From Candidatus Saccharimonadota bacterium (GTDB taxonomy: Bacteria > Patescibacteriota > Saccharimonadia > Saccharimonadales > SZUA-47): a DNA stretch of 64,000 nt. Every line of letters begins with the position of its first letter. Position 1 is the stretch's first letter. The stretch spans positions 917,298 to 981,297 of the forward strand of contig CP065013.1 of NCBI GenBank assembly GCA_016700315.1, given 5' to 3'. Shown here piece by piece: positions 59,802 to 62,727 of the stretch. Under the pieces are notes generated by a model that was not told where the DNA came from, ran no database searches, and worked only from the letters and a program-made list of their open reading frames with translations. A program made the translations under genes and the position numbers.

Positions 59802-60224
59802 CTAGCGTTTGCGGCGTTTTAGGCCGGCTACTTGCAATCGGACAGCGGTGCGATCCAGCAACGCTTGTGCGTGCTCTAGGCTTAACTGATCTTTGGCGTC
59901 AGCTTTAAGTTTTAGGGCTCTGTCGTGTGCCGCTTTGGCTTCTTCTTCATTGATCTCTTCGCTATTGTCAGCTTCGTCTACTAAGACCCTTAGAGTGTTA
60001 CCGCTAACTTCCACTGCGCCACCACTAATCGCAAACTGCTCACGCATGTCGTCGCGCTCTCCAGCTGTGCGGCGCACCGAAACAATGCCGGTTTTTGCCA
60101 CACTGATAAGTGGCATGTGACCTGGCAGCACACCGATATAGCCAGCCATAGTCGGGATAGTTACTTCGTAAACATCCTCGTCAAACTGCAGGCCATCGAG
60201 TGACACTAGCTGAAACCTGATCAT
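59802..60224 (-). CDS. atpC: F-type ATP synthase subunit epsilon
   Basis: 140 aa. LVSLDGLQFDEDVYEVTIPTMAGYIGVLPGHMPLIS and a C-terminal helical hairpin. Confidence 0.9.
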   Translation of the reverse strand: MIRFQLVSLDGLQFDEDVYEVTIPTMAGYIGVLPGHMPLISVAKTGIVSVRRTAGERDDMREQFAISGGAVEVSGNTLRVLVDEADNSEEINEEEAKAAHDRALKLKADAKDQLSLEHAQALLDRTAVRLQVAGLKRRKR

Positions 60225-60439
60225 CTTTTTATCAACTCCTTAGCTTTGGCAGAAGCTCTAGCAAAAAACCCTGCGGCGCTGTCGGCGCCGATTTTTACCA
60301 GCATACCAGCCGTGGCTACTGCACCAACAGCCATCACTAAAGCGATTTTACTAACGTCAACTTCGGGTGTCTCTGGTCGCAAAACTGAGGAGTTGTCAGC
60401 TCCCATGTCAAAATCACGGATTGGTCTCGGTGCACTCAT
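60221..60439 (-). CDS. hypothetical 72-aa protein with one hydrophobic helix, inserted between atpD and atpC
   Basis: AAGGAG SD 7 nt upstream. ATGA overlaps at both ends. Hydrophobic segment IALVMAVGAVATAGMLV. Confidence 0.55.
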   Translation of the reverse strand: MSAPRPIRDFDMGADNSSVLRPETPEVDVSKIALVMAVGAVATAGMLVKIGADSAAGFFARASAKAKELIKR

Positions 60440-60708
60440 GCTTCCTCTCCTTCTGGCCGACCTGTTAGGTGGGCCGGCATATTTTGATCCAGAAAGCGTA
60501 TTTCTACTCCATCATCATCCACTTCAGCCAACGCTCCATCGCCTAGTTGCATGTAGGTCCTAAAAAGCCGCATTTGCTCTGGCGACATCTGATCATTGAG
60601 GTTTGGTTGCGGAGCATAGCCCTCGCGCATTTGGGCGATAGTGTCTGCTCCCTCGTTCGCAAACAGAAACCGGTGCGGCAAACTAAATCCTTCTAGTGAA
60701 TCGCCCAT
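60436..60708 (-). CDS. hypothetical 90-aa acidic protein inserted between atpD and atpC
   Basis: ATG 1 nt after the atpD stop, with an AAGG SD inside the atpD 3' end. Its stop overlaps the next ATG. Confidence 0.55.
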   Translation of the reverse strand: MGDSLEGFSLPHRFLFANEGADTIAQMREGYAPQPNLNDQMSPEQMRLFRTYMQLGDGALAEVDDDGVEIRFLDQNMPAHLTGRPEGEEA

Positions 60709-60709
60709 A

Positions 60710-62113
60710 CTATGCCTTTACCTCGCTGATATCACCTTTCATATAGAAGGCTGACTCAGGTTTGTCGTCGTGTTTACCATCCAAAATCTCGCGGAAGCCA
60801 GCAACCGTGTCAGCAAGCGAGACATATTTACCAGGCTTACCCACAAAGACTTCGGCCACGTGGAATGGCTGAGTCAAAAAGCGCTGAATTTTGCGAGCTC
60901 TAGCCACCGTCAACTTATCTTCGTCGCTAAGCTCCTCCATTCCCAAAATAGCGATGATGTCTTGGAGGTCTTTATAGCGCTGCAAGATTCGCTGCACTTC
61001 ACGAGCAACTTGGTAATGTTCCTCACCTACGATTTCTGGGTCTAGGATTGTCGAGCTGGAATCTAGTGGATCAACAGCAGGGTAGAGACCTAGCTCAGTC
61101 AATGCACGGTTTAGCACGATTGTGCTGTCGAGGTGAGCAAAAGTCGTAGCTGGAGCTGGGTCGGTAAGGTCATCGGCTGGCACATAGACGGCCTGAACGC
61201 TAGTGATCGAACCTTTGCGTGTTGAAGTAATGCGCTCCTGCAAAGCACCCATCTCGACGGCCAAGTTTGGCTGATAGCCCACAGCCGAAGGCAAACGTCC
61301 AAGCAAGGCCGATACTTCGGCACCAGCTTGAGTGAAACGGAATATGTTGTCAACAAAAAGCAGCACGTCGCTACCTTTGTCGCGGAAACCTTCTGCAATC
61401 GTAAGGCCACTTAGCGCAACTCTCAGGCGAGCGCCTGGCGGCTCATTCATCTGGCCGAAAACTAGACTGGTTTTGTCTAGCACACCAGAATCTTTCATCT
61501 CGTAGTAAAGATCGTTACCTTCACGAGTACGCTCACCAACGCCCGCAAACACCGAGTAACCACTGTGGAACTTGGCAATGTTACTGATAAGCTCCTGGAT
61601 CAAAACCGTTTTACCGACACCAGCGCCACCGAACAAACCGACTTTACCACCTTTGGTGATTGGGCTGATAAGATCGATGACCTTGATGCCCGTCTCCAAA
61701 ATCTCGACGCTGCCTGACTGCTCGGTAAAGGCTGGGGCAGAGCGGTGGATCGGAGCTCGTTCGTTGTTGAGGGCTTTTCCGCCGTCAATCGGCGCACCTG
61801 TAACGTCAAACATTCTACCCAAAGTTTCCTCACCGATCGGCACACTGATTGGCGCGCCAGTGTCGGTAACTTCTGTGCCGCGCTCTAGGCCGTCAGTTGA
61901 ACCCAGCGCAACGGCTCGCACGCTGTTTTCGCTGAGGTGCTGCGCAACTTCAAAATAAAGCACCTGTCCGCTTGTATCGACAGTCAAAGCGTTATAGATC
62001 GCCGGCAAATGTCCGTCGTCAAACGCTACGTCGACAACGACTCCCACTACCTGGCTGATTCGGCCTTTTTTGTTGACTGCTGACTGTTTACTTTTTACTG
62101 TTGCTTCCGCCAT
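60710..62113 (-). CDS. atpD: F-type ATP synthase subunit beta
   Basis: [18 protein letters not shown] (Walker A), [10 protein letters not shown], and [23 protein letters not shown]. Confidence 0.97.
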
Positions 62114-62160
62114 ATTATCTCCTTATCGACTTTATGAATTACTGCTTATACAATTACTTT

Positions 62161-62412
62161 TCATACCGAATCTCTGTGACCTCTTTCTACATCTGTTAAG
62201 CCATGAATATAGCCAAGTACATAGTGAGTTAGGGGGGGCTGAATATTGCCGCGTAGCCCTTCGGCAACTGTTAATCCTTCGTGGGCGGCATCTACCACTG
62301 CTTCTACGATATATGCCAACACACCATCGGGCAGGTCAAGGTATTTAAACCTCTCAGCAATAGGTTTAGCGAGCTCTCTAGCGGTAGCCTCTCCGGGCAT
62401 CAATTCAGCCAT
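62161..62412 (-). CDS. hypothetical ~83-aa protein inserted between atpG and atpD
   Basis: ATG at 62410-62412 with a GAAGG SD 5 nt upstream; the ORF track starts at TTG 62424. No family recognised. Confidence 0.5.
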   Translation of the reverse strand: MAELMPGEATARELAKPIAERFKYLDLPDGVLAYIVEAVVDAAHEGLTVAEGLRGNIQPPLTHYVLGYIHGLTDVERGHRDSV

Positions 62413-62463
62413 TCTAACCTTCAAGCCCTTCCTTGTTTATTCCTCGCCGCTGACTCTCAGACA

Positions 62464-62727
62464 TTATTTCATAACCTCCGGTTTTGGCTTTGCGAAAGAC
62501 AACATTGCTGTGCTGGACAAAACGCTGGCTACCCTGTTCGCTGTCGGGTCATCTATTCCAGCTAGCACAGCTAGTCTGGTGGCAAACTCCTCAAGCGTTA
62601 ATAGAGTACTGCCCCGATAAATGTCGGCATTTGGCCCCCAAGCCTCCTTTTGAATAGCCCCAGTATTCTCAACACCACTGATAAAGCTATCAACCTCTTC
62701 TCGTGTTCCTAAAGGAATGCCACTCAT
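62464..62727 (-). CDS. hypothetical 87-aa protein inserted between atpG and atpD
   Basis: Strong SD AAAGGAGG 7 nt upstream of the ATG. No family recognised. Confidence 0.55.
   Translation of the reverse strand: MSGIPLGTREEVDSFISGVENTGAIQKEAWGPNADIYRGSTLLTLEEFATRLAVLAGIDDPTANRVASVLSSTAMLSFAKPKPEVMK

Follow-up and report, generated by a model that had tools for sequence, protein, structure and literature searches.

Four small open reading frames (ORFs) interrupt the atpG-atpD-atpC core of the ATP synthase operon in a closed 988,272 bp metagenome-assembled genome of a Candidatus Saccharibacteria bacterium. They lie in a stretch of 64,000 nt that is called the window here. Two of them, orf87 and orf83, are found between atpG and atpD, and the other two, orf90 and orf72, between atpD and atpC. 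GenBank lists them as QQS64919, QQS64918, QQS64916 and QQS64915, all annotated "hypothetical protein", in a region with locus tags IPO96_05145 to IPO96_05165. We favour, at a probability of roughly 0.45, the reading that they are passengers, genes that sit at operon junctions and borrow the expression of the housekeeping genes around them. This reading rests on orphan ORFs in the rplK operon of the same genome, polymorphism at the atpA-atpG junction, the differing placement of genes for four-helix-bundle proteins, fast turnover of the junction ORFs and their fast divergence.

All genes in the atp region of the window are on the minus strand. The GTG-initiated atpG (F1 gamma; 62932..63804; PF00231, E = 2e-89) is followed by a 204 nt spacer (62728..62931), orf87 (62464..62727, 87 aa, QQS64919.1) and orf83 (62161..62412, 83 aa, QQS64918.1). 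Then come atpD (F1 beta; 60710..62113; PF00006, PF02874 and PF22919), orf90 (60436..60708, 90 aa, QQS64916.1), orf72 (60221..60439, 72 aa, QQS64915.1) and atpC (F1 epsilon; 59802..60224; PF02823, E = 9e-19). The Shine-Dalgarno (SD) site of orf87 is AAAGGAGG, 7 nt ahead of the start, and that of orf83 is GAAGG, 5 nt ahead of the ATG at 62412; orf90 has AAAGG, orf72 has GAAGGAGAGGAAG, and AAGGAG precedes both atpD and atpC. We took the ATG at 62412 (83 aa) rather than the TTG at 62424 (87 aa) as the start of orf83, because its homologues begin with MSxEF/YMPGE. Neither orf87, behind the 204 nt spacer, nor orf83, behind one of 51 nt, is translationally coupled to the preceding gene. After atpD, a single nucleotide separates the TAG stop codon from the ATG of orf90, and ATGA overlaps join orf90 to orf72 and orf72 to atpC. 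The first-pass annotation, made by a model from the letters of the window, had described the same positions, strand, SD sites and 1 nt and ATGA junctions, and the sequence bears it out. The same species was found in ENA, JGI and Logan assemblies (L001-L010; here L-numbers denote the contigs or loci compared and P-numbers homologous proteins). In these, the operon 5' of atpG consists of an atpI-like gene, atpB, atpE, atpF, atpH, atpA and one inserted gene. The operon has a PF09527 gene of its own upstream.

To find homologues, the four ORFs were joined into a single query and compared exhaustively, with phmmer, with 1.8 billion representative proteins. The orf87 homologue P0043 (53% identical) is encoded directly after atpG in the sister species, L093 (5508-5780). 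The orf83 homologues P0044, P0045 and P0049 (52%, 44% and 44% identical, respectively) are all encoded between atpG and atpD. For orf90, phmmer returned P0047 and P0050 (39-51% identical), and a profile search enlarged the family by P0051, P0052 and P0053. Gene context was examined for P0047, P0050, P0051 and P0052. Each is encoded at the atpD-atpC junction, its start either adjoining the atpD stop codon or overlapping it. A 72 aa ORF that follows atpD in L011 is a probable distant member of the orf90 family, to judge from its profile match (hhalign probability 72%). Matches to orf72 in phmmer were confined to its own species, and it resembles three tandem mini-ORFs (85, 56 and 64 aa), each with one transmembrane (TM) helix, at the same junction in L093 (blastp E = 0.006, 36-sequence database). 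When metagenomes were scanned with profiles of orf83 and orf90, the sole addition was one contig from the same species.

All homologues with a readable context occupy the same operon position: atpG-atpD for orf87 and orf83, right after atpD for orf90. In L093 the gene order is atpA, four-helix-bundle gene, atpG, orf87 homologue, a 75 aa ORF, orf83 homologue, atpD, the three TM mini-ORFs and atpC. L098 has atpA, a 49 aa ORF, atpG, a 107 aa ORF, orf83 homologue, atpD and atpC, and L101 has atpG, orf83 homologue and atpD. The order atpD, orf90 homologue, atpC is found in L097, L102 and L103, and also in L105, where atpA, a 102 aa ORF, atpG and a 98 aa ORF precede it. Downstream, ATP-grasp, MIP and UvrD-like genes are common to the relatives, and this shared synteny indicates vertical inheritance. 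Slighter resemblances were also seen: the 98 aa ORF of L105 has just its first 12 residues in common with orf83, and similarity of a 64 aa ORF in L012 is limited to one 14-residue motif. Two candidate homologues were set aside. P0048, a repetitive protein of 2183 aa, was matched spuriously through its low complexity. In the orf90 variant P0040 of L092, everything past residue 49 is unrelated to the window, likely because the 1.1 kb contig is chimeric.

Polymorphism within the species was assessed in the window and in L001-L010, L091 and L092. In these contigs, which were picked for an identical AtpD protein or for similarity to orf90 and yield small counts, orf90 has 13 synonymous and 14 non-synonymous differences (ratio of non-synonymous to synonymous rates, omega, ~0.31; P = 0.003 against neutrality). 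The corresponding figures are 12 and 12 for orf72 (omega ~0.32, P = 0.006) and 6 and 7 for orf87 (omega ~0.37, P = 0.07). For comparison, atpC has 19 synonymous and no non-synonymous differences (omega 0) and atpG has 54 and 4 (omega ~0.02); the four ORFs are under weaker constraint than the ATP synthase subunits. No stop codon or frame-breaking indel was present in any of the four in 8-13 strain sequences. Because orf83 has no variants at all among 9-10 strain sequences, its coding status comes from the cross-species homologues.

The invariance of orf83 extends over 62114-62412, which includes the spacer ahead of atpD and all synonymous sites in the 9-10 strains, and the flanking genes vary by 1-2.7%. 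A recent sweep, gene conversion or a sampling effect could account for it. RNA structure does not account for it (z = +1.2). P0041, a 93 aa member of the cluster, is identical to orf83 over 62 residues, up to a stretch of seven consecutive C residues (approximately 62235-62245) where the frame shifts; this is a sequencing error or slipped-strand variation. The apparent lack of orf83 from L001 is due to a scaffold gap of 100 Ns rather than a deletion.

Across species, the DNA of the inserted regions can no longer be aligned, yet at the protein level the sense frames still align (E = 1e-10 to 1e-27). As omega is ~0.3 and amino acid motifs are kept where the DNA no longer aligns, selection acts on the proteins. 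On the opposite strand, longer ORFs (62246-62620, 124 aa; 60246-60563, 105 aa) overlap the four and would be chosen by naive longest-ORF calling. The sense frame of orf83 matches its relatives with E = 4e-21 to 4e-26, against 7e-8 to 0.007 for the antisense frame, and 7e-8 is the best value for any antisense translation. The conserved frames are the sense frames. The first-pass annotation took the ORFs for genuine genes and not for noise, a view upheld by the matching positions of their homologues, by purifying selection and by the fact that several databases call them as genes. Judged by these comparisons, orf87, orf83 and orf90 are certainly genes and orf72 is very probably one, and the sequence-based support for coding is strong for orf90, good for orf87 and moderate for orf72. 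A further ORF, "orf56" (62772-62942), is probably not a gene. It falls in the spacer between atpG and orf87, is absent from the cluster members that carry GenBank accessions, and has a predicted isoelectric point (pI) of 11.3 and no homologue beyond its own species.

The orf87, orf83 and orf90 proteins are acidic and soluble (pI 4.2-5.0, with orf90 at 4.2). The orf72 protein (pI 9.4) has a C-terminal Ala/Gly-rich hydrophobic helix and a basic tail; the hydrophobic segment, residues 32-50, reaches a Kyte-Doolittle maximum of 2.15, in agreement with the single helix noted earlier. The orf90 family shares the core motif GY.P..PNLNDQM(T/S)PEQ...FR.(Y/F)MQ. AlphaFold2, given the family alignments, predicted three helices for orf83 (8-22, 31-54 and 62-76; predicted local distance difference test score, pLDDT, 68), and for orf90 a mostly low-confidence model (pLDDT 53) in which a single helix covers the conserved motif, next to a short hairpin elsewhere in the chain. 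A Foldseek search of the PDB with the orf83 model gave generic helical matches, all with E > 1. The low-to-moderate confidence of these models and the lack of a fold match would also be in keeping with passengers.

Searches of the four ORFs with Pfam and NCBIfam models (E <= 1) gave only chance-level matches to unrelated families, and Pfam models applied to all members of the orf83 and orf90 alignments (E <= 10) included no atp-related family. The models for a, b, c, delta/OSCP, epsilon, AtpI, ATPase_gene1, zeta/DUF1476, IF1, Atp11 and Atp12 matched none of the ORFs, nor did PF05635 or TIGR02436, and sequence-profile searches of the PDB returned nothing below E = 0.2. The Pfam and NCBIfam scans thus agree with the earlier impression that none resembles a known F1Fo subunit or assembly factor. 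The literature searched holds no description of ORFs inside the Saccharibacteria atpG-atpD-atpC core. The four ORFs form new small families in a broader category, taxonomically restricted small genes, that is already familiar. The label "orphan" given to them earlier holds outside a Saccharibacteria subclade, but inside it orf87, orf83 and orf90 define small families.

Turnover at these junctions is fast. Relative to L093, AtpD, AtpG and AtpC are 93%, 89% and 83% identical, against only 51-53% for orf87 and orf83. Two close relatives, L093 and L098, lack the orf90 family, and there is no ORF between atpD and atpC in L098, nor in L015, L019 and L024. More distant Saccharibacteria (L012-L015, L017, L019 and L024) have one to three small ORFs at atpG-atpD or atpD-atpC that show no significant similarity to those of the window, and in the ten that were tested no Pfam domain was detected. 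They may be orthologues that have diverged beyond recognition or replacements. Outside Saccharibacteria, direct adjacency of atpG, atpD and atpC, which the first-pass annotation took to be the rule in most bacteria, holds generally but not strictly: the atpG-atpD gap exceeds 200 nt in about 12 of 65 loci and the atpD-atpC gap in four of 65.

The junction upstream of atpG is variable even within the species. The window DNA ends before atpA, within the 3' end (47 codons and the stop codon; 63856..64000, minus strand) of a gene whose 47-residue product fragment scores 26.6 bits against TIGR02436 (cut-off 24; E = 5e-6) and E = 1.4e-4 against PF05635. It is thus the four-helix-bundle family gene reported earlier, and it is 56% identical to the PF05635 gene that lies between atpA and atpG in L093. 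Proteins of PF05635/TIGR02436 take their name from their site in 23S rRNA intervening sequences (IVS). In L001 and L004, which encode an identical AtpD protein, an unrelated 136 aa ORF occupies the atpA-atpG position instead of the four-helix-bundle gene of the window strain, and in L019 a four-helix-bundle gene is found at atpG-atpD. The 136 aa orphan ORF (L001 4160-4570; L004 22-432) overlaps the atpG start with its end, and the atpG of L001 is more diverged (93% nucleotide identity). L003, L006 and L007 have the heptamer array and atpG leader in common with the window strain.

The same pattern recurs in a second operon. In secE-nusG-rplK-rplA (window 13577-17201), three ORFs without a Pfam match occupy the junctions. 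The first (14577-14804, 75 aa), between nusG and rplK, and the third (15684-16013, 109 or 100 aa), ahead of rplA, are hypothetical proteins in GenBank. The second (15377-15661, 94 aa) starts 2 nt past the rplK stop codon, and its protein is absent from the GenBank record. Small orphans at housekeeping-operon junctions thus characterise the genome rather than the atp operon, and because they also occur in the rplK-rplA operon, the location of the four ORFs in the atp operon weighs less as evidence of function. A relationship between the 94 aa ORF and the orf90 family was considered and rejected (hhalign probability 6.5%, not significant).

Under the passenger reading, small genes would be captured or born at the junctions of constitutively expressed housekeeping operons in a genome of about 1 Mb, and some would later be retained by purifying selection. 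Their products would act outside ATP synthase. Translation of orf87 and orf83 would start from their own SD sites, 3' of the structured spacer, and orf90, orf72 and atpC would be translated in a termination-reinitiation relay from the atpD stop codon, with epsilon translation chained through orf90 and orf72. Promoter-like and terminator-like motifs are no more numerous than in shuffled controls. With no sign of a dedicated promoter beyond what chance would give, the atp mRNA is the most likely source of their expression. The data show that the ORFs are coding, that their positions are conserved, that they turn over between lineages and that a second operon has the same pattern; we infer that they are co-transcribed with the atp genes and that their function is independent of ATP synthase.

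The 204 nt spacer ahead of orf87 folds with -56.5 kcal/mol (z = -3.9 against shuffled sequences). It contains an 11 bp hairpin between A and U runs, three short hairpins and an array of TGATTAA-type heptamers (62741-62776), and has no match in Rfam. Among eight strains it varies by one single-nucleotide polymorphism and one 3 nt indel (nucleotide diversity, pi, 0.001 versus ~0.02 in the neighbouring genes). It is absent from L093, where the orf87 homologue overlaps the atpG stop codon. The spacer may modulate read-through or mRNA stability, as an attenuator, processing site or stabiliser. Within orf72, just 5' of atpC, there is a terminator-like GC-rich hairpin, CGGCGCCGACAGCGCCG, with a T run (60274-60290, minus strand), a type of motif whose number is not above chance.

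Two heptamer arrays lie within the atp operon, one ahead of orf87 and one ahead of atpG; the latter, between the four-helix-bundle gene and atpG, consists of 4.3 copies of a TACTACT-type unit (63821..63850, minus strand; Tandem Repeats Finder). Such arrays (period 7, 3-8 copies, with mixed units side by side) crowd the intergenic regions of the window, and are also found at 11628-11893, 14910-14939, 17240-17589, 25589-25619, 26204-26258, 33899-34338, 35979-36008, 36638-36666, 55019-55306 and 57637-57695. In L093 they flank the four-helix-bundle gene on both sides; L014 has one, and there are none in L098, L105 or L011-L013. They recall the short tandemly repeated repetitive (STRR) sequences of cyanobacteria and the TAACTGA heptamer repeats of Beggiatoaceae (PMC4679880).

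Several observations weigh against the passenger reading. The orphans of the rplK operon are known from the window genome alone. The orf83 family always lies directly 5' of atpD, in at least four species, and the orf90 family directly 3' of it, in at least five, with the atpD stop codon abutting or overlapping the start of the orf90 homologue in every case seen. No homologue outside an atp operon was found among those looked up. The junction ORFs of Saccharibacteria are confined to the F1 half of the operon (atpA-atpG, atpG-atpD and atpD-atpC), where they are usually present, and no ORF was found at any Fo-half junction in the Saccharibacteria loci, where gaps range from -38 to 183 nt. A fixed position held through much divergence in a streamlined genome is also what a functional link to F1 would lead one to expect.

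The main rival explanation is that the families of orf83 and orf90, perhaps together with orf87 and orf72, represent lineage-specific F1Fo accessory proteins, which would be produced along with beta and serve as assembly chaperones, extra subunits or regulators of ATP hydrolysis; we consider this possible, but the less probable account. It would explain why the position on both sides of atpD is strictly kept in species whose AtpG and AtpC are only 76-89% and 54-83% identical, and why the families are found within atp operons and in the F1 half. Purifying selection and the conserved motifs PNLNDQMTPEQ..FRRFMQ and DAVHDGL / HY.LGY would also be expected. So would the acidity of the junction ORFs, which is suggestive: 26 of 34 from all lineages are acidic versus 22 of 62 other window proteins, although the ORFs are not independent samples. 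The soluble junction ORFs of L011-L015, L093-L105 and the window are mostly strongly acidic (pI 4.1-5.6) even where they have no sequence similarity, and of the eight that are not acidic, six are small and carry a TM segment. The patchy distribution, with no orf90 family in L093 and L098 and with orf87 and orf72 seen in two species only, argues against accessory proteins, as do the lack of sequence or profile similarity to any known ATP synthase subunit, inhibitor or assembly factor and the lack of a fusion to an atp subunit among the hits (61-123 aa, apart from the one spurious repetitive protein). Fast divergence, low-confidence fold prediction and a junction gene that is polymorphic within the species are likewise unfavourable, and the rplK-rplA orphans make the location unspecific. 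In its more specific form, in which the orf83 and orf90 families would bind F1 beta (as a chaperone, an extra subunit or a hydrolysis inhibitor suited to an epibiotic, low-respiration life) and orf72-type proteins would be small membrane-anchored partners of Fo, the proposal is a tentative one that we rate at under one chance in three. If true, it would be the first lineage-specific set of accessory subunits encoded within a bacterial atpG-atpD-atpC core.

Alternatively, the ORFs might be translated spacers that act in cis, where the passage of ribosomes maintains coupling and mRNA stability, and tunes the 1:3 gamma:beta and 3:1 beta:epsilon output, while the peptide itself is weakly constrained. 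The relay of 1 nt and ATGA junctions from atpD to atpC would fit, as would the location of junction ORFs exactly where the stoichiometry changes, the presence of similar-sized, apparently unrelated ORFs at the same junctions in other lineages, and the fast divergence and low structural confidence. We regard this as improbable, as an omega of ~0.3 and conserved motifs indicate selection on the protein. Moreover, L098, L015, L019 and L024 manage without an atpD-atpC ORF, and orf87 and orf83 are uncoupled and have SD sites of their own.

The first-pass annotation had also raised the possibility of selfish or addiction-type genes (toxin-antitoxin or phage-derived modules) in a highly expressed operon, which we consider very unlikely. 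There are two pairs of adjacent small genes, one joined by an ATGA overlap that sets acidic orf90 beside basic, hydrophobic orf72, and the atpA-atpG junction gene is swapped between strains. However, none of the four ORFs was matched by PADLOC, no toxin or antitoxin domain was detected with Pfam, NCBIfam or PADLOC, and PHROGs gave a single chance-level match (orf87, E = 0.019) and none for the other three. Viral contigs scanned with the orf83 and orf90 family profiles contained no relative, and there are no paralogues of the four elsewhere in the window. The single fixed position and conserved flanking synteny fit vertical inheritance. In addition, orf90 and orf72 are not an obligate pair, because orf90 occurs without orf72 in L102, L103 and L105 and an orf72-like gene without orf90 in L093. 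Finally, chance ORFs in enlarged intergenic spacers might lack a database family, overlap longer antisense ORFs and give a low-confidence model such as that of orf90, but this explanation is the least credible of all, and for orf87, orf83 and orf90 it is already refuted by sense-frame homology where the DNA cannot be aligned, by intact frames with a significant deficit of non-synonymous changes and by good SD sites.

Other features of the window lie away from the atp operon. The rplJ-rplL genes are 8 kb beyond rplA and not adjacent to it. Between rplA and rplJ, a 600 aa ORF (18081-19883, minus strand) contains 10.6 copies of a 60 nt repeat (17823-18458) that encodes a leucine-rich-repeat-like array, NPNLT(S/N)LTIAEGA. 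A perfect 160 nt tandem duplication (8498-8842, 2.2 copies) has a unit that opens with a tRNA-like sequence beginning GGCAGGGGCAGTAGGAGTCGAACC. A putative haem-O synthase and a putative cytochrome bo3-type quinol oxidase cluster (subunits II, I, III and IV) were recognised by eye from the translations of 1620-6885. If the oxidase assignment is correct, this would be a Saccharibacteria genome with a terminal oxidase beside a complete F1Fo operon.

Whichever reading is right, four proteins annotated as hypothetical can now be assigned to defined families that are clearly marked by their position, and in these genomes a shared operon says little about a shared function. If they are passengers, an ultra-small genome would express and replace new genes via the junctions of housekeeping operons (atp and rplKA), with replacement visible even between strains and some insertions long fixed. 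If instead they bind F1, they would be new bacterial ATP synthase accessory factors in a phylum with a poorly understood energy metabolism. Saccharibacteria are now culturable and genetically tractable.

Among known systems, small regulators of F-type ATP synthases include the epsilon C-terminal domain, alphaproteobacterial zeta, cyanobacterial AtpTheta and mitochondrial IF1, which are small, often partly disordered or helical, lineage-restricted and act on F1. This is what would be predicted for orf83 and orf90 as accessory proteins, but the window ORFs are known from their genes alone, and neither the zeta nor the IF1 family is among the Pfam matches of the four. The genes for zeta, AtpTheta and IF1 are not known to lie between atpG, atpD and atpC. 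Atp11, which binds beta, Atp12, which binds alpha, AtpI and the ATPase gene 1 product are accessory and not part of the final enzyme, the last two being encoded within the operon itself. However, AtpI-type proteins are polytopic membrane proteins encoded at the operon 5' end, and the window ORFs that flank atpD encode soluble, acidic proteins without similarity to Atp11, Atp12 or AtpI. Type II toxin-antitoxin systems likewise consist of two adjacent small ORFs with a 4 nt overlap, but the genes described here have no toxin or antitoxin domains, promoter of their own or mobility, and the partners separate in relatives.

Parallels exist for passengers as well. The four-helix-bundle 23S rRNA IVS proteins are small passengers inside very highly expressed housekeeping units, and one is present in this operon. 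Members of that family are found widely, in different phyla, but the four ORFs are dissimilar to it in sequence and confined to a small number of Saccharibacteria species. Taxonomically restricted small genes embedded in operons are likewise short, fast-evolving, poorly structured by prediction, confined to a narrow clade and dependent on their neighbours for expression. Typical young orphans do not show such stability, whereas here two families hold a fixed place beside atpD together with translational coupling.

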